A DNA stretch of 56,777 nt. Source: Candidatus Geothermincolales bacterium (GTDB lineage Bacteria > Actinomycetota > Geothermincolia > Geothermincolales > RBG-13-55-18). Under the pieces are notes generated by a model. It was not told where the DNA came from, searched no databases, and saw only the letters and a list, made by a program, of their open reading frames with translations. Every line of letters begins with the position of its first letter. Positions within the stretch are counted from its first letter, which is position 1. Positions 11,959 through 56,777 of the stretch are shown piece after piece. Where the stretch lies: contig JBBFMI010000001.1 of assembly GCA_037478635.1 (NCBI GenBank), positions 1-56,777 on the forward strand, given 5' to 3'. The position numbers and the translations under genes were made by a program.

Positions 11959-12086
11959 TTGGGGCGAAGACGTTCATCCGAGCCTGGTGTCGACCGATAA
12001 GTGGGGACCGAAAGGGAATAAGGCGGGATTCCGTCGTGTGGAGTACGGGTTGGGTGGTTTTTCATAGGCCATCGGATAGACGGGGG

Positions 12087-13058
12087 GTGGCCGAGCTGGA
12101 GAAGTTCAGCAAACTCTGGAGGATCATCAAGCTCTTCACCTTGATCGAGGGCAACCCGGGCGTTAAGGCGAAGGACCTGGCAGAACGCTGCGAGGTCTCG
12201 ATTCGTACCATATACCGGGATATCCAGCTGATGAAGCTGGCCGGTATCCCCCTTTATTACGACGACGGTTACCGAATCGCGGAGGGCTTTTTCCTGCCCC
12301 CGCTGCAACTCGACCTCATGGAGACCCTTTCTCTCCTCATGGGCGCGGAACTTCTTGCCCGCCAGAAGGGAACCCCTTTCCAGAGGGGCATCGAGAGCGC
12401 GGTCCAGAAGATATACGCCTCCTTGCCCGCGGGATTGAGAGAGGAGGCCCGCCGGGAATCAGCGAGGTTCAGCCCCGCGTGGCAACCGGCGGTGGATTAC
12501 CAGCGACGCCTGTCCATCCTGGAGGTACTGGAAGAGGCCATCGAGGAAAAGAGGTCAGTGCGCATCGATTACCGGGCCATGTCCACCGGCGAGTGTACCG
12601 AGCGGCTGGTGGATCCCTACGGCTTCCTTTTCCGGAGCAACGGTTGGTATCTCGTGGCCCATTGCCATCTCAGGGGAGAGATAAAGATATTCAAGGTGGA
12701 CCGCATCCTCGATGCCGTCATCACGGGGGACAGGTTCGAGGTCCCGGAGGACTTCAACATCAGGGAGTACATGGGCGAGGCCTGGCAGTTGATGAGGGGA
12801 GAACGGGTGTACCAGGTGGCAATACAGTTCCCTCCCCACGTGGCCCCCTTTGTAACCGAGTGCATATGGCATTTCTCCCAGACCTGTGAGCCTCGGGAAG
12901 ACGGCAGCGTCATCCTGAGGTTCCGGGTAAGCGGGTTGGAGGAGCTGGCCAACTGGCTGTTGGGGTTTGGCGGTGACGCCCGGGTCCAGGAGCCACGGGA
13001 ACTGGAGGATCTCCTGGTGGAGAAGGCATCCCGGGTTCTCCAGGTATATAGAAGGTGA
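12087..13058 (+). CDS. HTH + WYL-domain transcriptional regulator (PafBC/BrxR-type architecture)
   Basis: N-terminal wHTH LWRIIKLFTLIEGNPGVKAKDLAERCEVSIRTIYRDIQLM; WYL core VRIDYRAMSTGECTERLVDPYGFLFRSNGWYLVAHCHLRGEIKIFKVDRI. Start uncertain (GTG 12087, or 12036 in the ORF track). Confidence 0.8.
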   Translation: MAELEKFSKLWRIIKLFTLIEGNPGVKAKDLAERCEVSIRTIYRDIQLMKLAGIPLYYDDGYRIAEGFFLPPLQLDLMETLSLLMGAELLARQKGTPFQRGIESAVQKIYASLPAGLREEARRESARFSPAWQPAVDYQRRLSILEVLEEAIEEKRSVRIDYRAMSTGECTERLVDPYGFLFRSNGWYLVAHCHLRGEIKIFKVDRILDAVITGDRFEVPEDFNIREYMGEAWQLMRGERVYQVAIQFPPHVAPFVTECIWHFSQTCEPREDGSVILRFRVSGLEELANWLLGFGGDARVQEPRELEDLLVEKASRVLQVYRR

Positions 13059-49297: not shown

Positions 49298-50297
49298 CCG
49301 GTTCCCGACCCCGAAGTGGAAGGTAATCACCATCGTCGCCTCCATACTGCTGGCCTCTGTCCTGGTCGCCCACCTCGTGAATCACTTTTTCTTCCCCGGC
49401 AAGAACGGCGAGAAAGTCCACGTGGTCATCGAGAAGGGAGAGGGATTGGGTGCCGTCGCTGAAAAGCTGCGCGAGGAGGGGATCATCAGGAGTTCGCTCC
49501 TGCTCCGTCTCTACGCGATGGTGAGAAGAGGCGATACGCTGGTTCTCCCTGGTCATTATCTGTTCGAAAGGGGGATGAGGTACGGGGAGGTCTTGGACCT
49601 GTTGGCGCAGGGCCCAAACTACCAGGTGAGAGTGACCGTTCCCGAGGGGCTCACCCTCCACCAGACAGCCGAGATATACTCTTCGGTCCTCGGTTTCACG
49701 GTCGAGGATTTCTTGGCGGAATGCAACTCGCGATTGCATCCCACCCCTTTCATCGGCGACAGGGATGTCACCTTGGAGGGGTTTCTCTTCCCCAAGACAT
49801 ACGATCTGCCACCGGACGCCACTCCGGGGACAGTGGTGGAGACGATGCTCAGGCAGTTCGAGAAGGAAGCCGCAGAACTGGATTGGGGCAAGGCGGAAAA
49901 ACGCGGTCTTACGCCATACGAGGTGGTAATCGTGGCCTCCATGATAGAGAAGGAGGCCATGCTCGACGATGAAAGGCCATTGGTGGCCGCGGTCATCTAT
50001 AATCGCCTCAGGTTGGGCATGCCCCTCCAGATAGACGCCACGGTGCAGTATGCCCTTCCCCGATGGAAACCTCGCCTAAGCTACCAGGATCTCCAGGTGG
50101 ATTCGCCGTATAACACCTATCGACATAAAGGGCTTCCTCCCGGTCCGATATGCAGCCCGGGCAGGAGCAGTCTCGAAGCAGCACTCGATCCCGCTTCGGT
50201 GGATTACCTTTATTATGTCGCCACCGGGGACGGCGGCCATTTCTTCACCTCCGACTACGGAGAGTTCCTCGAGGCGAAGAAGAGATATCAGCCTTGA
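49245..50297 (+). CDS. mltG: Endolytic murein transglycosylase MltG (YceG-like)
   Basis: N-terminal TM, LysM-like region, catalytic VASMIEKEA, SPYNTYRHKGLPPGPICSPG. The listed start overlaps ruvX by 53 nt, so the true start may be further downstream. Confidence 0.88.
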   Translation: MWKSHEKDRKERTLTIFDRFPTPKWKVITIVASILLASVLVAHLVNHFFFPGKNGEKVHVVIEKGEGLGAVAEKLREEGIIRSSLLLRLYAMVRRGDTLVLPGHYLFERGMRYGEVLDLLAQGPNYQVRVTVPEGLTLHQTAEIYSSVLGFTVEDFLAECNSRLHPTPFIGDRDVTLEGFLFPKTYDLPPDATPGTVVETMLRQFEKEAAELDWGKAEKRGLTPYEVVIVASMIEKEAMLDDERPLVAAVIYNRLRLGMPLQIDATVQYALPRWKPRLSYQDLQVDSPYNTYRHKGLPPGPICSPGRSSLEAALDPASVDYLYYVATGDGGHFFTSDYGEFLEAKKRYQP

Positions 50298-50444
50298 TCG
50301 AGAAAAACGGCCGGCCATAGTCGTTTTGCCTTTGGCCTTGTCAAAAGGATTTTTAAACATGACGGACTTTAATTTCCATCCGATGGAGTCGATGTTGAAG
50401 GAGTAAGGTGATCGCCCGTCAAAGTCACTAAGAGCCGGGCAGAT

Positions 50445-50450
50445 TAGAAT
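50445..50450 (+). promoter_or_regulatory. Candidate -10 element (ATTAGAAT context) ahead of the V4R/hydrogenase-like operon
   Basis: TAGAAT at 50445-50450 in the AT-richer 192-nt gap after mltG. The octamer ATTAGAAT is the same as at the putative pimA promoter. No good -35. Confidence 0.3.
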
Positions 50451-50489
50451 CGAAGAGTCCACTGGCAATGAACCCAGGAGAAAGAAGAC

Positions 50490-50978
50490 ATGGTCGGTAG
50501 CATGAACGGCGCATCAGGCAGGGGGATGTGGCTTGCGGAGACGCTGGCCGTCTTTGGGCTATCCGCTGAGATGGCGATAGGCCCGTCGACGCCCAGGGTC
50601 ATCTACTTCTCGGCCAAAGACCTAGGGGTTAGAGAGGGCAAGAGGTTCGATCACACGGATGACCTCGAACAGGCGCTACGCTGGATCCTGAGAACTGATG
50701 AAGGTCACTGGTCTGTCGTTTTCTGGAAGGATGTGGACGAGGAGGATTTCTGGGAGACGGATGGGAAATTCGCCTTCATCCGCCTGTTGATGAGAGATTG
50801 TCTCGTCAGGGACGCATGCTTGGCGACGGGTATCAGGGTTGGCGGGACCGTCTGCGAAGCCCTTCATGGCTACTGGGCAGGGCTTCTGGAGAGCATTTTC
50901 TCCCGGAGGGTGGACATCTTGACCGAGCACGCCGGTTTTGGGAGCTGCCTTTTGTGCTTGAGGACCACCTCCGGTTGA
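50490..50978 (+). CDS. Hypothetical protein with C-terminal V4R-like (4-vinyl reductase type) small-molecule-binding domain
   Basis: C-terminal VCEALHGYWAGLLESIFSRRVDILTEHAGFGSCLLCL resembles the V4R pattern C-x2-L-x-G-x2-AG ... V-x-V-x-E ... C-x-F. AGGAGAAAG RBS. Pattern resemblance only. Confidence 0.45.
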   Translation: MVGSMNGASGRGMWLAETLAVFGLSAEMAIGPSTPRVIYFSAKDLGVREGKRFDHTDDLEQALRWILRTDEGHWSVVFWKDVDEEDFWETDGKFAFIRLLMRDCLVRDACLATGIRVGGTVCEALHGYWAGLLESIFSRRVDILTEHAGFGSCLLCLRTTSG

Positions 50979-51005
50979 GTCGCCAAGAGGAAAAGGTGAA
51001 GAGTT

Positions 51006-51902
51006 ATGGATAGGTTGGCAATTATACAGCTCGGCTCCTGTGGAGGCTGCCAGCTCTCGCTACTGGATCTCGGGAAAGACTTCCTCGACATCATGGAAAT
51101 GTATTCCATTGAGCATTTTCCGATGATAAGGGAGGGAGAGGAATTCCCGGAGTCTGACCTCGTACTGGTGGAGGGCACGGTGAGACATGCCCGACACTTA
51201 GAGTCACTGAGAAAGGTTAGGGGCAGGGCGAGGACCCTAGTTGCCCTGGGGACATGCGCCGTGTTCGGGGGGGTCCAGGGCCTGGCGAACGTGAGCGGTG
51301 GTGGTAGGTGGGAGGAATCCATTTCCAGGGCTCGTGCGGGCGAGAGCGTCCCGCTATTCACCAGGAGGGTCCTACCACTCGACGCCTATGTGCCGGTGGA
51401 CGTGAGGTTACCCGGTTGTCCGGTGCCCGCCGGGCTTTTGGCATCCTTCCTCAAGGGATCGGCGGAAGGGGCGAGGCCTACCAGGGAATCTGCCACCGTG
51501 TGCGCGGAGTGCCCACTTAGAGGAGGTGGTGAGAAAGGAGGCCCGTTCCGCTTCACCGAGAGGAAAGCCGAATCGGGGATATGTTTTCTGGAGCAGGGTT
51601 TTCTCTGTATGGGGCCACTTACCCGGGACGGTTGCGGCGCCCTTTGCCCCGGATCTTCGGGATACCCCTGTCGGGGATGTCGCGGGCCTTCTGATGGGGC
51701 CTTGATCTTTCAGGAATTGGATCCCATGGTCGAGTCCATCAGGAGGCTTTCCCGCACTGCGAGCAATAAGGATGAACAGGTGGCGGGTTATTTCATGGAC
51801 AGGGCTCACGCGTTTTTCATGTTCTGCGCGGCAGAACCGACATTCCGAGACAGGAGGGTCGGGGGGACTTCTGGGATCGTGTACAGGTTGGGAGGTGAAT
51901 GA
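51006..51902 (+). CDS. [NiFe]-hydrogenase small subunit homologue, group-3 (MvhG/FrhG/HydD)-like, three predicted Fe-S clusters
   Basis: Proximal-cluster motifs GSCGGCQLS, GTCAVFGG, PGCPVP. Distal/medial region VCAECP ... ICFLEQGFLCMGPLTRDGCGALCPGSSGYPCRGCRGP. Confidence 0.8.
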   Translation: MDRLAIIQLGSCGGCQLSLLDLGKDFLDIMEMYSIEHFPMIREGEEFPESDLVLVEGTVRHARHLESLRKVRGRARTLVALGTCAVFGGVQGLANVSGGGRWEESISRARAGESVPLFTRRVLPLDAYVPVDVRLPGCPVPAGLLASFLKGSAEGARPTRESATVCAECPLRGGGEKGGPFRFTERKAESGICFLEQGFLCMGPLTRDGCGALCPGSSGYPCRGCRGPSDGALIFQELDPMVESIRRLSRTASNKDEQVAGYFMDRAHAFFMFCAAEPTFRDRRVGGTSGIVYRLGGE

Positions 51903-51963
51903 GCCCCTCGTTACACCGTGGCCGTGGTAGGCCACTGGGAGGCAGAAGAGGCGGTTGAGAGAT

Positions 51964-53271
51964 ATGGCTACATATGGTCTGGCCAGGGTTTTTGGTGAGG
52001 CCCACCTGAGGGTCGAGGTCGAGGAGGGAGGAAAACCCTCGGTTGGCTTGGCCTGCGAAGGTTACAGGGGTTACGGGATCATCGGCGCAGGATGCCACGG
52101 GGAATTCCTCCCCGACCTCTTATCCAGGCGCTGCGGGGTCGATTCCCTGTATCACAGGATGGCAGCCTGCCTGGCCATGGAAAAGGCCCTGGGAGTGGAA
52201 GTACCGGAAAGCGCCGGGAGGGTTAGGGAGTTGTTATTGGCCTGCCAGCTGTTCCGTCGGCATTCGCTGACCATGACCCTGCACGTACTTCCAGATCTCC
52301 TGTTCCCGGCCTCCGACCCAGGGGTTAGAAACCTGGTGGGACTCTTCCGGGTGGACAGGGACGTGGTGGGGAGGATGATGGCCCTTAACTCTTGGGGGGA
52401 GAGCGTCTTGAGGAATATCTCTGCCCGGGCCGTCCATCCGCTGACCCCGGTGCCGGGCGGACTCACCTTTATTCCGGGTGAGGAGGCCATCGATTGGTTG
52501 AGGAAATCGATCCCCGAGATGATGGGCCTTGCCAGGGAGACCTCGCGCTTGGTCAGGATGTTGTTAAGGCGTAATGAGGACCTGGTGGGAGAACTGGGGA
52601 TACAAGATGGTTCGCAGATGGTGGCGGAAACACCGCCGTTCGGAGGTTCGTGGGTTGGCGTGAATATAGCGGAGTTCACCGGCGAGAGGCGAAAGATCGG
52701 GGCCCTGGATTTGCTGGAGAGGGCTGAAAAGGTCAGCCTGTCCGACACCCTACTGGAGGGTTACCGCGTCTCCGGAGACGGTTACGGGATCCTTACCGGG
52801 CCCCTTTCCAGGATAAACGTGATGGGTTCTTACGGCACCGAGATGGCTGACTCGGAGCTGGAGGAGATCAAGAAGATATGGGGTTTCCCTTTCCGGGGAA
52901 TACTTCTATCCCATGCACTCCGCCTGGCAGAGATGATCATGGCTCTGGAGAAGATAACCGGGCTGATTTCCGAGGCCGATTCCTGGGGGAGGGGGGAGTC
53001 GAGGAACGAAGTCCCCAGGGGAAGTGGCGAAGGGGTCGTAGCCCTTGAGGGAGCGGAAGGCTTGCACCTTCTGAAGGTAAAAGTGGAAGAAGGCTACGTT
53101 TCCGGTACCGAATATGTCGCGCCGTTACAATGGAACCTCGTTGGTATGCTGGATATGCTGGAACGGGAAGGGCAGAAGGTGGGAGAAGACACGGGTGAGG
53201 CTCGATGGCTGAGCAGGTTAGAAGTGGCGGTGAGGGCCTATGCCCCCTGTTTCTTCTGCGCGGCTGGCTGA
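51964..53271 (+). CDS. [NiFe]-hydrogenase large-subunit homologue with degenerate active-site motifs (pseudo-hydrogenase or sensor candidate)
   Basis: Collinear with large-subunit motifs, but RIEGH is RVFGE, RxCGxCxxxH is RRCGVDSLYH, EAPRGxLxH is EVPRGSGEG, PTxWN is APLQWN, and DPCxxCxxH is APCFFCAAG followed by the stop. ATG 51964 (the ORF track lists TTG 51955). Confidence 0.72.
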   Translation: MATYGLARVFGEAHLRVEVEEGGKPSVGLACEGYRGYGIIGAGCHGEFLPDLLSRRCGVDSLYHRMAACLAMEKALGVEVPESAGRVRELLLACQLFRRHSLTMTLHVLPDLLFPASDPGVRNLVGLFRVDRDVVGRMMALNSWGESVLRNISARAVHPLTPVPGGLTFIPGEEAIDWLRKSIPEMMGLARETSRLVRMLLRRNEDLVGELGIQDGSQMVAETPPFGGSWVGVNIAEFTGERRKIGALDLLERAEKVSLSDTLLEGYRVSGDGYGILTGPLSRINVMGSYGTEMADSELEEIKKIWGFPFRGILLSHALRLAEMIMALEKITGLISEADSWGRGESRNEVPRGSGEGVVALEGAEGLHLLKVKVEEGYVSGTEYVAPLQWNLVGMLDMLEREGQKVGEDTGEARWLSRLEVAVRAYAPCFFCAAG

Positions 53272-53297
53272 AATGACGTGGAGGAGGCCTGGCAGTG

Positions 53298-53570
53298 ATG
53301 TCTGAAGCAAGGGTGGAGCTGGATCTTGCAAGATGCGTGGCTTGCCTGGAATGCTTGGAGGTCTGCCCGCGATCTTCCGGCATTGACCACCCCGTGTTCG
53401 ATAGGTCCGAGGAAGGTCTGCCCAAGGTAGCGTATCCGGGCAGTTGCATTTCCTGTCACGATTGTGCCGTGAGATGCAGGGCGATGGCCATACGGATCAA
53501 CGGGAAGTGTTTTCCCCCACCCCGAATGGTCGATCCGGTTCTTTCGAGCAGGATTCAGACCATATACTGA
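53298..53570 (+). CDS. 2x[4Fe-4S] ferredoxin-domain protein
   Basis: CVACLECLEVCP and CISCHDCAVRC (CxxCxxCxxxC twice); GGAGGAGG RBS. ATG 53298 (the ORF track lists GTG 53295). Confidence 0.85.
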   Translation: MSEARVELDLARCVACLECLEVCPRSSGIDHPVFDRSEEGLPKVAYPGSCISCHDCAVRCRAMAIRINGKCFPPPRMVDPVLSSRIQTIY

Positions 53571-53773
53571 TGACCGACGGTTTGAGCATGGATGTGAGTG
53601 ATGTCACCGGGAAGAGTCTACAGCCTCAAAACCTGGTAGCCAGGCTAAACAATTGGGCGGCTTTGACGATACAGTAATAAGCGTTGACCGTGTTATACAC
53701 GAGTAAACTTATGGTAAAAATGGCGTTTGACGAGATCGAGTAAGCATCGGGAATGGGCGGGAGGTGGTAGGTT

Positions 53774-54127
53774 TTGCCGGATCTGAGGAGAGTCCTGGAG
53801 GAACTTGTGGCCACCGGGGCGGTTAAGGCCTGCCTGGTGGTGGGCAGGGATGGTTTCATCATAGAGGCAGTGGGAAGCGATCCCTCCCAACTGGAAGCGG
53901 TGGGCGCTATCGCACCCAGTTCCCTGGGTGCGGCGGAGGTCATCGGACTCGAACTGGCCCAAGGTCCTATGAGCCAGGCCTTGTTCGAGTTCGAGAAGGG
54001 TGCCATCATGATGAGCGCAGTGGGTCCCGATGCCATCCTGGTGAGCATCCTTCCCTCGGGCGCTAACCTCGGGAAGGCCAGGTACGATATCCGGAAGTTC
54101 CTGCCTGCTATCGAGAAAGCCCTGTGA
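53774..54127 (+). CDS. Roadblock/LC7 (MglB-like) domain protein, paralogue 1
   Basis: About 117 aa; AVKACLVVGRDGFIIEAVGSD ... ALFEFEKGAIMMSAVGPDAILVSIL, a typical Robl/LC7 pattern. TTG start after GGAGGTGG. Confidence 0.8.
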   Translation: MPDLRRVLEELVATGAVKACLVVGRDGFIIEAVGSDPSQLEAVGAIAPSSLGAAEVIGLELAQGPMSQALFEFEKGAIMMSAVGPDAILVSILPSGANLGKARYDIRKFLPAIEKAL

Positions 54128-54164
54128 ACGTTGATCTTGTCGATGGTCCAGAGGTGGTGAAAGG

Positions 54165-54539
54165 GTGGCAACCGAGAGGCTGGAAAGGATCAACACGGTC
54201 CTTCGAGAGTTAAGGGCAAACCTTCCCGAGGTGGAAGCGGTGGTGTTGATAAGCAGCGATGCCATGGCCCTGGCTTCGGACATCTCTGACGATTCCGATG
54301 AGGAGATGATAAGTGCCCTGTCGAGTTCCGTGCTGAACATGGGGGAGAGGGCCGCCAGGGACCTCAGGCGAGGGGTGTTGGAGCAGGTGTTCATCAAGGG
54401 TGACCAGGGATCCCTTCTCCTCATGCATTGCGGTCCCCAAGCCCTGCTGTCGTTGATGGTCAAGCCAGAGGCCAAGCTGGGCGTGGTGCTCATGGAGGCT
54501 AAGAGAACGGTAGAGGAACTCTCCAGGCTCTTTGATTAG
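54165..54539 (+). CDS. Roadblock/LC7 (MglB-like) domain protein, paralogue 2
   Basis: LRELRANLPEVEAVVLISSDAMALAS ... QVFIKGDQGSLLLMHCGPQALLSLMV; GTG start after GAGGTGGTG. Confidence 0.8.
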   Translation: MATERLERINTVLRELRANLPEVEAVVLISSDAMALASDISDDSDEEMISALSSSVLNMGERAARDLRRGVLEQVFIKGDQGSLLLMHCGPQALLSLMVKPEAKLGVVLMEAKRTVEELSRLFD

Positions 54540-54590
54540 CCCCGACTCGGTATCCCATGGGATCTGGGAGGAAAAAAGGAGGTAAGATCC

Positions 54591-54989
54591 TTGTCGGAGT
54601 CGCGGGAAGAAAGGCTCAGGAAAGCCCTGCAGGAGCTTATATCGAAGTCAGCCGAGGTCGATGCAGCCGCTGTCGTCAGCATGGACGGATTGGTGATGGC
54701 CTCGGTCCTACCCAACACATTGGAGGAGGATAGGTTAGGGGCCATGTCCGCGGCTTTGCTCAGTCTGGGCGAGAGGACCTCCGAGGAGCTGGGTAGAGGA
54801 GAGCTGGCCCAGGTGTTCGTAGAGGGAAAGGAGGGTTACGTGTTCCTCATGGCCGCAGGACCCGATGCAGTCCTGACGGCCCTGGTCAGAAAGGGCAGCA
54901 AACTGGGATTGGTGTTATACGATGTCAAAGGGGCTGCAAAAAAGATAGCGGAGATAATCGCCTCGGAATTCAAGATTGAGTACGAATAA
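54591..54989 (+). CDS. Roadblock/LC7 (MglB-like) domain protein, paralogue 3
   Basis: LQELISKSAEVDAAAVVSMDGLVMAS ... QVFVEGKEGYVFLMAAGPDAVLTALV; TTG start after AAGGAGGT. Confidence 0.8.
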   Translation: MSESREERLRKALQELISKSAEVDAAAVVSMDGLVMASVLPNTLEEDRLGAMSAALLSLGERTSEELGRGELAQVFVEGKEGYVFLMAAGPDAVLTALVRKGSKLGLVLYDVKGAAKKIAEIIASEFKIEYE

Positions 54990-55093
54990 AACGACATATT
55001 TTATATGAGAATAAATTAGAGGGGTGGATCGACCATCGTCCGGAAGTTCCGCCGTCCTCTTTGGTTTAAAATAATAACAAGAGATGATGAGAG

Positions 55094-56777
55094 ATGGCTC
55101 TTAAGGGCAGTTTGAAGGACTTCAGCCTCCCCGATCTATTCCAGTTGCTGAACTTCAGCAAGAAAAACGGCACGCTTAACCTCGTGAGGGGGAATTCCAG
55201 GGGATATATCTGTTTCCGCAACGGGGAGGTCTTTTTCGCCACCACCAACTGGAAACGGCAATCCCTGGGCATGAAGCTCATGGCCGCGGGACTCATCACC
55301 AAGGAACAACTGGAAGAAGCGCTCGGGTTGCAGCGTACGGAGGCAAAGGGGCAGAGGCTGGGGCAGATCCTGGTGCGTCTGGGATACATAACCCAGGAGC
55401 AACTCGAGGTCTTCGTGGAGGAGCAGATACAGGATGCCGTTTTTGAGATGCTACGCTGGACCGATGGGGAATTCGATTTCCAGCCTGGGGTGGTGTTCCC
55501 GGAGGAGGATATTGGCCTCTCCATCAGCACCGAGGAGCTGATAATGGAAGGCTCCCGGCGTCTGGACGAGTGGAACCGCATCGAGAAGAAGATACCCCAC
55601 CTTGACGTGGTCTTCAGGATGAAGTCAATGCAGGGCAGGGAGGCTGCACAGATTAGCCTGACTCCAGAGGAATGGATGGTGCTCACCTACGTGGATGGCG
55701 AGAGGACGGTCCGCCAGATAGTGGAACTCACGGGGATGAGCACCCTCCAGACCTGCAAGATCCTCTACGGCCTGATCAGCTCCGGTTTGCTTGAAAACGT
55801 TACCCCTCAACCGGAGGAAATAGAAACGGAGAAGAGGTTGGAGGAGCTCGCCCAGGAGCTTGAGCGAGCGGAGCAGGAAGTGACCACCGAGGTTAAGGAA
55901 ACGGAGGTCACGGGAGAGAAGAGAGTCTATCCGGTTGAGGAAGAGATGGGCTTGACCGAGAGGGTGGAAAGCCTGCTCCGGGAGCTGGAAAGGCCGAAGG
56001 AGGAGCTCAGGGAGATCGGGGATACCGAGACCGGTCAGCATGAGGAGACCGTAAAAGAAGCGGAAGACCTTTTGAGGCAACTCGAGGAAGAACGAGAACG
56101 GGAGGTTTATCAGCAGCAGGTCACGGAAGGGTTTGCCGGGGAGATCTCAGAGGAAGAAACCCGATCTTCAACGAGAGCTGAGACGACGTTATCGGGGGAG
56201 ATCTCCCAAGAAGAAGAAGTGGTGGTGGGAGCGGAAGAAACCGAAGAGATCCTGGTGGTGGAAGAGGAGGAGGCCGGGGTCTCCGTGGAGGATGCTTCTG
56301 CCGGGGCGGGAGAGCTGGTCGAGGAGCCGGGGATATCAACCCTTGCCGGTAAGGCCGAGGAAGAACCTTCCGCGGGCATGGCGGTTGAGAGCGATAGACC
56401 AAAAGACCTCCTGAGAGAGAGCCTGGAAGAGGAGAGACGAAGGCTGGAGGAGCTGAAACGACAGACCCTAGCCGATGCACTGGAGGCATCTACAGAGATA
56501 GAGGTGGTAAAAGGCGGCGGAAGGTTGAATGTCCCCGAAGGGCTGATAGATGCTGACGAGACCGTGGAACTCAAACCGTCCCGTCACATCGGTACAGGCG
56601 AGAGAAAGCCCGTACAGGAAGGGGACTTGTTGCACGAAAGCGAGCAAGCCAGAAAGGCGAAGATGTCTTATCTGGCGAAGAAATACGGCATTGATTTTGA
56701 TGAATTGGAGCAAAGGAGAGAGGAAGAACCGAAAGATGCCATAGATACACCTCTTGAAGCAAAGGAGAAAGAGGGAG
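55094..56777 (+). CDS. PATAN/DUF4388-domain protein with helical MshEN/T2SSE_N-like insert and long acidic coiled-coil tail; 3' end outside the window
   Basis: Not in the supplied ORF track because it has no stop. I translated it codon by codon from ATG 55094 (two in-frame TGA codons just upstream) to nt 56777 and found no stop (more than 561 aa). N-terminus [30 protein letters not shown] is the DUF4388/PATAN signature. It continues ...[11 protein letters not shown] and a wHTH-like [30 protein letters not shown]. Confidence 0.8.

Follow-up and report, generated by a model that had tools for sequence, protein, structure and literature searches.

Four cysteines are a feature of every [NiFe]-hydrogenase according to a 2025 review (PMC12134894), the arginine of the EAPRG motif is described as highly conserved (PMC5962704), and a genome survey checked its hydrogenase candidates for the cysteine motifs (PMC7325909). 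Here, we analyze a hydrogenase-like operon in a 56.8-kb window (56,777 nt, the whole stretch of DNA that was studied) from the hot-spring actinobacterial lineage Candidatus Geothermincolales, contig JBBFMI010000001.1 (GCA_037478635.1), whose large-subunit gene encodes an aspartate, Asp63, where the second cysteine of the L1 motif RxCGxCxxxH would stand. Asp63 proved invariant in all 25 distinct sequences of a monophyletic clade within Candidatus Geothermincolia (Actinomycetota), the kind of distinct clade for which an earlier note on this DNA had proposed to test. The encoded protein is probably not a normal H2 catalyst and is possibly a sensor. Literature searches on Asp-ligand [NiFe] variants, on Geothermincolia or Solincola hydrogenases, and on hydrogenases with Roadblock or GTPase genes turned up no description, and, as far as that literature goes, the earlier remark that no group-3-type enzyme with this substitution has been described still stands.

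Among described systems, the F420-non-reducing group 3c hydrogenase MvhAG (PDB 5ODC) is the best sequence and structure match of the large subunit, and the likeness extends to a VhuG/MvhG-like small subunit with three [4Fe-4S] clusters and to a cytoplasmic heterodimer architecture. The present locus differs from MvhAG in that the second L1 Cys is Asp, the RIEGH Glu, the EAPRG Arg, and the DPC Asp have all given way to other residues, and the inferred gate column holds His instead of Leu, while MvhD and HdrABC are missing from the window and from the gene lists of four homologous loci (L001, L003, L025, and L031), the partners being instead a V4R-fold protein and a small ferredoxin.

By analogy only, the locus can also be set beside the group 2b regulatory hydrogenase HoxBC of Ralstonia eutropha, a dimer that serves signaling rather than energy conversion and whose large subunit has no C-terminal extension. 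The sensor properties of regulatory hydrogenases go with an altered second coordination sphere and low turnover (PMC5665086). A proposed likeness to sensor hydrogenases through loss of the proton-relay Glu was dropped, as those enzymes carry Gln in place of the L1 His (PMC5665086). HoxBC, which belongs to another phylogenetic group, keeps four Cys and a genuine NiFe(CO)(CN)2 center and signals to the histidine kinase HoxJ, whereas here Asp63 replaces a Cys, the L1 His67 is retained, the cluster contains no kinase gene, and a sensor role is hypothetical.

The group-4/complex I lineage (Ehr, Mbx/Mbs, and NuoD/NuoB) offers a precedent for homologs that remain functional without Cys ligands or H2 chemistry. 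Mbx/Mbs and NuoD/NuoB are non-hydrogenase homologs of the [NiFe] large and small subunits that function with an iron-sulfur small subunit. Ehr is a group-4 relative that has lost the Cys ligands (PMC7304191). These relatives are membrane-bound, have antiporter-like subunits, and mostly lack several or all Cys ligands, whereas the protein studied here belongs to the soluble group-3 side, retains three Cys, and has Asp, Glu, and His in addition.

Finally, the surrounding genes recall MglA/MglB, the actinobacterial Cvn systems, and TRAPP, with Roadblock/LC7, PATAN, and Ras-like GTPase genes present and a V4R/Bet3-fold protein opening the cluster. We know of no MglAB, Cvn, or TRAPP system that includes hydrogenase-like subunits. 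Relationships among V4R/TRAPPC3, Roadblock, and GTPase proteins have been described (PMC10933270). Judged by its gene content, the cluster unites Roadblock/LC7 and a Ras-like GTPase in the manner of MglA/MglB-type systems, and their coupling to the hydrogenase-like genes is putative.

The large subunit and its putative metal site

The large-subunit gene and its motifs are as follows.

51955 to 53271, plus strand: large-subunit homolog (438 amino acids), group-3c-like fold with a remodeled putative metal site
51985 to 51999, plus strand: L0 motif, RVFGE for RIEGH, with Phe13 in place of the proton-relay Glu
52126 to 52155, plus strand: L1 motif, RRCGVDSLYH, equivalent to RxCGxCxxxH, with Asp63 (GAT, 52141-52143) in place of the second Cys
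52282 to 52284, plus strand: His110, at the inferred gas-channel gate column, which is Leu in canonical group 3
53047 to 53061, plus strand: L4 motif, EGAEG for EAPRG, with Glu368 in place of the catalytic Arg
53233 to 53271, plus strand: L5 motif, RAYAPCFFCAAG-stop, with the two C-terminal Cys (Cys432 and Cys435) kept

Residues are numbered along the open reading frame (ORF) at 51955-53271; the true start is likely the ATG at 51964, as in a 97%-identical relative (P0001), which gives 435 amino acids and lowers all numbers by 3. We assign the product, by sequence and predicted fold, to the divergent homologs of group-3 [NiFe]-hydrogenase large subunits because Pfam, NCBIfam, and PDB profile searches all match it to such subunits, an assignment that the earlier note had also made. 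The Pfam NiFeSe_Hases match is weak and covers residues 55-104 only, and the NCBIfam scores (134 bits for VhuA, cutoff 800; 106 bits for ShyA) lie far below the curated cutoffs; the top PDB profile match is MvhA (5odc_F, 258 bits). An AlphaFold2 (AF2) model from a 100-sequence alignment reached a mean predicted local distance difference test score (pLDDT) of 94.4, and a Foldseek search with it again returned MvhA (5odc_F) first, with a template modeling (TM) score of 0.92 and a root-mean-square deviation of 2.2 Å; the next matches were HydABCSL, the NAD-reducing hydrogenase, and P. furiosus SHI.

The codons at 52126-52155 (AGG CGC TGC GGG GTC GAT TCC CTG TAT CAC) encode R58, R59, C60, G61, V62, D63, S64, L65, Y66, and H67, and the window letters thus bear out the reading of the motif as RRCGVDSLYH with GAT as Asp. 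Asp63 stands in the column of the second RICGIC Cys, the Ni-Fe bridging Cys (D. gigas Cys68), in MAFFT alignments, in a hidden Markov model (HMM) alignment to MvhA, and in a 160-sequence alignment, and sequence, profile, and structure comparisons agree that an Asp occupies this metal-bridging column. As the three kinds of alignment concur, we rejected a shift that would bring another Cys to the ligand column. A Cys does stand one position earlier (CGCD) in P0007, L001, L009, and L022, but most Asp-clade members have no such Cys, and no other Cys fits the register.

The other motifs of the site are altered as well. The alignment supports RVFGE as the RIEGH equivalent, in agreement with the earlier note, and the Glu of RIEGH is missing throughout the whole syntenic family. 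For L4, the earlier choice of EVPRGSGEG as the EAPRGxLxH equivalent was a misalignment and is rejected, as this string lies ~11 residues upstream in a GxGxG stretch, while three independent alignments place L364-E-G-A-E368-G-L-H-L-L on VEAPRGTLIHH, with EGAEG on EAPRG; the L4 change, as aligned, is from Arg to Glu and hence more drastic than had been assumed, and Glu368 is invariant in the Asp clade. In L5 (RAYAPCFFCAAG), Ala430 takes the place of the DPC Asp and Gly that of the final His; a C-terminal extension is absent, as it also is in three canonical relatives (P0014-P0016). The large subunit nevertheless keeps the L1 His67, the L2 and L3 motifs, three of the four Cys, and the whole fold.

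Further changes are shared by the family and put His110 in place of Leu, Tyr373 in place of His (the window has Leu here), and Leu391 in place of the PTxxN Thr. The column of His110 holds His in all 25 Asp-clade sequences and in 4/5 of the sister clade, but Leu in 7/8 canonical relatives, and it aligns with MvhA L111 in the profile alignment. We take this column to correspond to the gas-channel gate beside Ni, occupied by L122 in D. fructosovorans and by F110 in R. eutropha HoxC, a placement inferred from its position at a constant +47 relative to the second Cys. Invariant changes specific to the Asp clade are F37Y, x48H, L100F, and S102R; at the last of these, canonical enzymes carry Ser or Asn where the clade has invariant Arg102. 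His110 or Arg102 could serve as an extra ligand or charge partner. By homology, the buried site comprises Cys60, Asp63, Cys432, and Cys435, together with the invariant Glu368 and His110.

The picture of a group-3 enzyme with one ligand swapped therefore captured the Asp for Cys but understated the change, as the whole catalytic second sphere is replaced: Glu (RIEGH), Arg (EAPRG), Asp (DPC), His (EAPRGxLxH), and Thr (PTxxN). Most of these second-sphere changes are older than the Cys-to-Asp change, being common to a syntenic sister clade that keeps the Cys.

Two further deviations are more local. The subclade of the window (with L003, L004, and P0002-P0004) ends in C-A-[AS]-G rather than C-G-V-H, losing the C-terminal His, and the window alone has Gly41 (52075-52077) where P0001 and most relatives carry Glu or Asp (RGFE). 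In canonical enzymes, the columns of residue 41 and of the C-terminal His presumably provide ligands of a Mg/Fe ion near the C-terminus.

Conservation and evolutionary series

A word-indexed search returned 12 homologs (37-97% identity), all with CG-x-D-S, and a scan of GTDB species genomes found 20 loci, all in Actinomycetota metagenome-assembled genomes, including Candidatus Solincola and Candidatus Geothermincola (class Candidatus Geothermincolia). In a HMMER search of 1.84 billion protein cluster representatives, full-length members of the syntenic family scored 674, 658, and 482 bits and a fragment (P0022) 440 bits, followed by a cliff to canonical group-3 enzymes at 323 bits or less. Among the complete motifs read in the best 150 representatives, Asp at the L1 column was confined to this clade, and the ~130 canonical group-3 representatives all carried RIEGH, RxCGxC, EAPRG, and DPCxxCxxH. 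The Asp63 codon in the fetched loci that carry Asp (n=21) is GAT in 19 and GAC in two, and an independent assembly with 97% amino-acid identity (L024/P0001) has the same Asp.

Only 57 of the 438 columns (13%) are invariant across the 25 Asp-clade sequences, whose pairwise identity goes down to 35%, and C60, D63, H110, E368, C432, and C435 are all among them. Comparing the window with L024, the ratio of nonsynonymous to synonymous substitution rates (dN/dS) is 0.134 for the large subunit, 0.050 for the small subunit, 0.056 for the V4R-fold protein, and 0.145 for the ferredoxin, i.e., all four genes are under purifying selection (0.05-0.15). Across loci, the large subunit (33-66% identity) diverges much faster than alanyl-tRNA synthetase (AlaRS; 52-81%), which fits a released catalytic constraint.

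Syntenic relatives outside the Asp clade show the site in other states. In L015-L017, L019 (Candidatus Geothermincola primus), and P0021, both L1 Cys are kept, while L4 reads ES-P-E-G (Arg to Glu; Gly in L019), DPC has become APC or SPC with loss of the Asp, and L0 has no Glu. P0030/L029, with the same synteny, keeps CGMC but has PHFHD where PCxxC is expected, and in P0028 and P0037 all four Cys remain, but the motifs read RI[RQ]GR and [CI]PC. In a neighbor-joining tree, the Asp clade is monophyletic, with the Cys-keeping Geothermincola type as its sister, followed by P0030, P0028/P0037, and the canonical 3c-like enzymes. This order and the changes shared with the Cys-keeping sister argue that the catalytic shell was lost before Asp replaced Cys, i.e., that the substitution, which takes two nucleotide changes (TGY to GAY), arose once in a family already without the catalytic second sphere. 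P0030 and P0037 share the same actinobacterial synteny and hence are not independent cases; the contigs of P0028 and P0073 are too short to judge context, and that of a canonical neighbor (P0023) is uninformative.

Ligand positions vary elsewhere too. P0030 (L029, 8001-9323), of a more distant actinobacterial lineage, has C-terminal Cys to His and Cys to Asp changes, a second independent ligand replacement. Degenerate ligand motifs also occur in other group-3-like large subunits among public proteins (P0040, P0050, P0063, P0073, P0153, P0161, and P0162), such as CGGS together with PCIPD (P0073) or SASS together with NPDxxE (P0153), and there may be more soluble hydrogenase-like proteins lacking the full set of four Cys than is recognized.

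Partner genes and the Roadblock, PATAN, and GTPase module

The genes flanking the large subunit in the window are as follows.

50490 to 50978, plus strand: V4R/Bet3-fold protein (162 amino acids), first gene of the hydrogenase-like operon, assigned by Foldseek on an AF2 model
51006 to 51902, plus strand: small subunit, MvhG/VhuG-like (298 amino acids; Pfam Oxidored_q6, 4e-25)
53295 to 53570, plus strand: 2x[4Fe-4S] ferredoxin (91 amino acids; Pfam Fer4 families and a weak HgcB-like NCBIfam match)
53774 to 54127, 54165 to 54539, and 54591 to 54989, plus strand: three Roadblock/LC7 (MglB-like) genes (Pfam Robl_LC7, 3e-13 to 1e-18)
55094 to 56776, plus strand: giant PATAN (DUF4388) protein, truncated by the end of the window to its N-terminal part (Pfam DUF4388, 2e-38)

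The small subunit scores 157 bits against NCBIfam VhuG, under the cutoff of 450, and in an alignment of 22 loci, all 12 Cys for the proximal, medial, and distal [4Fe-4S] clusters are conserved. The ferredoxin gene comes after the large subunit wherever a locus extends far enough, and the V4R-fold gene, wherever it is covered, lies immediately 5′ of the small subunit, separated from the small-subunit start by 28 nt in the window and overlapping it in L031.

The V4R-fold protein of the window had no match in the Pfam scan, and the Pfam V4R match is marginal (E 0.012) in one of eight family members; a homolog carries the JGI label “predicted hydrocarbon binding protein.” Its AF2 model (pLDDT 72, moderate confidence) matched the V4R sensor domains of PoxR, MopR, and DmpR in Foldseek (E 1.5e-5, TM 0.6), and further matches were TRAPP Bet3/TPC6, Thorarchaeota TRAPPC3, and the MJ1460 V4R protein. 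Four invariant Cys (C104, C110, C122, and C153) plus His126 resemble the Zn sites that have been described for PoxR and Thor-TRAPPC3 (PMC10933270).

Every sufficiently long locus has the order NifU, DUF948, alaS, ruvX, mltG, V4R, small subunit, large subunit, ferredoxin, three Roadblock genes, PATAN, GTPase, aroE, pilB, and pilT, except that NifU is missing in the most distant loci (L029 and L031) and that L031 has two Roadblock genes. Beyond the end of the window, the PATAN gene is followed in homologous loci (L001, L025, L026, and L031) by an MglA/CvnD-like small GTPase, a Ras-like protein with a TPGQ switch II, and then by aroE and pilB/pilT. If alaS-ruvX-mltG-aroE is a conserved housekeeping order, the block of nine genes that separates mltG from aroE would be lineage-specific. 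The remaining genes of the window have housekeeping functions (tsf, pyrH, frr, cdsA, dxr, rseP, ispG, proS, pdxST, ruvABC, queA, tgt, secDF, relA, hisS, and aspS, names inferred from Pfam families), apart from a WYL/WCX/HTH (PafC-like) regulator at 12036-13058 that is unrelated to the large subunit. Like mvhD and hdr, genes for Hyp proteins, Ni transport, and the endopeptidase are absent from the window and from the gene lists of L001, L003, L025, and L031. A promoter and terminator scan of 50200-55200 gave nothing above shuffle expectation and defined no operon boundaries.

The Roadblock and GTPase genes are conserved to a very high degree within the class, far more so than the neighboring hydrogenase-like genes, with Roadblock identity of 58-97% across Geothermincolia loci. 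Taken together, the Roadblock paralogs and the GTPase (L001, 17423-17956) are 58-98% identical across species, as against 52-81% for AlaRS and 33-66% for the large subunit. A metagenome scan with the GTPase gave at least 597 homologous stretches; among the best 80 loci, the longer ones examined all hold pairs of a PATAN (~320 amino acids) and a GTPase gene without Roadblock or hydrogenase-like genes, and the stretch carrying the only very close GTPase relative (L033, 93% identity) is too short for context. The modules are therefore separable, and the pair is independent and widespread. Such short PATAN/DUF4388 and MglA-like GTPase pairs, with GTPases 54-58% identical to that of Geothermincolia, occur in L048 (9035-10534) and ~45 other loci (L035-L103), while a giant PATAN (1190-1350 amino acids) preceded by Roadblock genes occurs only in Geothermincolia-type loci. 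The association of the PATAN and GTPase pair with V4R, small subunit, large subunit, and ferredoxin, and with three Roadblock genes, is specific to these deep-branching Actinomycetota and so far has inherited synteny as its only support.

Proposed function of the hydrogenase-like dimer and its meaning

On balance, we lean toward a remodeled putative metal site in a low-turnover or sensory redox module. The large subunit would then be a functional, hydrogenase-derived protein that is no longer a canonical H2-cycling [NiFe] enzyme, a reading we favor because the iron-sulfur wire and ferredoxin are intact, the genes are under purifying selection, and the re-cast site is invariant, and also because the proton relay is lost, ligands drift among orthologs, and the protein diverges fast. 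Instead of the standard Ni-Fe(CN)2CO center for fast heterolytic H2 cleavage, the site more likely binds a harder, mixed S/O/N-ligated metal, either Fe or Ni alone or a modified bimetallic center, which would exchange electrons with the ferredoxin through the iron-sulfur wire. The module probably senses or converts, at low turnover, redox state or a small molecule (a gas or a V4R-bound ligand), and its output could, more speculatively, feed the adjacent switch of three Roadblock proteins, PATAN, and MglA-like GTPase next to the type IV pilus genes. That this metalloprotein is the redox or gas input of a Ras-like GTPase switch controlling type IV pilus-related behavior is an unlikely, tentative extension.

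Several points weigh against such a remodeled module. Three Cys, His67, the L2/L3 motifs, and the fold are all retained; the closeness of His110 and Glu368 to the Cys/Asp cluster is itself inferred by homology; and the link to the GTPase rests solely on synteny inherited within one class. In work of 2017 by Shomura et al., Glu32 reportedly ligates Ni in the oxidized group-3d enzyme (5XF9), and an Asp-bridged NiFe site is thus chemically conceivable. In addition, canonical 1, 3b, 3c, and 3d hydrogenases and Hyp proteins have been reported in related classes, and cofactor insertion is thus possible in principle (PMC7325909).

The alternative that survives best, although we consider it rather doubtful, is a cofactor-less scaffold (pseudoenzyme) that does no more than hold the small subunit in place, in the way that NuoD serves NuoB in complex I or that Ehr/Mbs-type relatives work, with redox or sensing chemistry taking place at the iron-sulfur clusters or on the V4R-fold protein. 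The loss of catalytic residues, the varying ligand identity across the wider family, and the group-4 precedent of relatives without Cys ligands (Ehr, PMC7304191) are all compatible with it, as are the fast divergence of the large subunit relative to housekeeping proteins and its higher dN/dS (0.13, against 0.05 for the small subunit and the V4R-fold protein). A mere scaffold, however, would not readily account for six site residues kept invariant in 25 sequences when just 13% of columns are, or for a two-nucleotide Cys-to-Asp change that was fixed and kept along with the invariant F37Y, S102R, L100F, and x48H; the site thus looks re-tuned rather than decaying.

That the protein is instead a working [NiFe]-hydrogenase seems quite improbable to us. 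In such an enzyme, Asp63 would be a bridging or terminal O-donor to a Ni-Fe(CN)2CO center, Hyp proteins with genes elsewhere would install this center, and H2 and the small ferredoxin would exchange electrons; the bias or the O2 tolerance of the enzyme might be altered. The features kept in the large subunit would suit this, as would the intact iron-sulfur wire and ferredoxin partner, the purifying selection, and the hyp genes of relatives (PMC7325909), and the missing C-terminal extension is no obstacle given its absence in canonical P0014-P0016. Against it, the catalytic Arg, proton-relay Glu, DPC Asp, L4 His, and PTxxN Thr, near-universal in the ~130 canonical relatives, are replaced, and an important mechanistic role is ascribed to the Arg and the Glu (PMC5962704; PDB variants R479K, 6syo, and E14Q, 6gam). 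Moreover, ligand drift in the same locus (Cys to Asp; PCxxC to PHxxD in P0030) is unexpected for a strict organometallic site, and no hyp genes lie nearby in the window. Lastly, a sequencing or assembly error at the Asp codon, or a decaying pseudogene, has nothing to recommend it except the rarity of the substitution and is rejected as virtually incredible, the error being untenable because Asp63 is conserved across species, in 25 distinct sequences from independent assemblies and with both GAT and GAC in the 21 loci, while ORFs are intact everywhere and dN/dS is 0.13.

Deep-branching Actinomycetota that encode the Wood-Ljungdahl pathway have, as an entire class, retained a hydrogenase-like dimer that is under purifying selection, and the genes of this dimer should not be counted as H2-metabolizing “group 3c” in metabolic reconstructions of Geothermincolia. 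Genome surveys that filter on Cys motifs could discard sequences like the Asp-clade large subunits. One orthologous locus offers a stepwise series, from four Cys with the catalytic shell lost, to Cys3-Asp, and to Cys2-His-Asp in a further relative, which lets one ask what a [NiFe] scaffold binds and does once H2 catalysis has been given up, a counterpart, within the soluble group-3 branch, of the hydrogenase-to-complex I transition. If the synteny with Roadblock, PATAN, and GTPase genes reflects function, redox or gas sensing would be tied to bacterial small-GTPase signaling, and if that sensor-to-GTPase reading is true, the dimer would represent a previously unknown class of sensor and a natural descendant of the [NiFe] site with carboxylate ligation.

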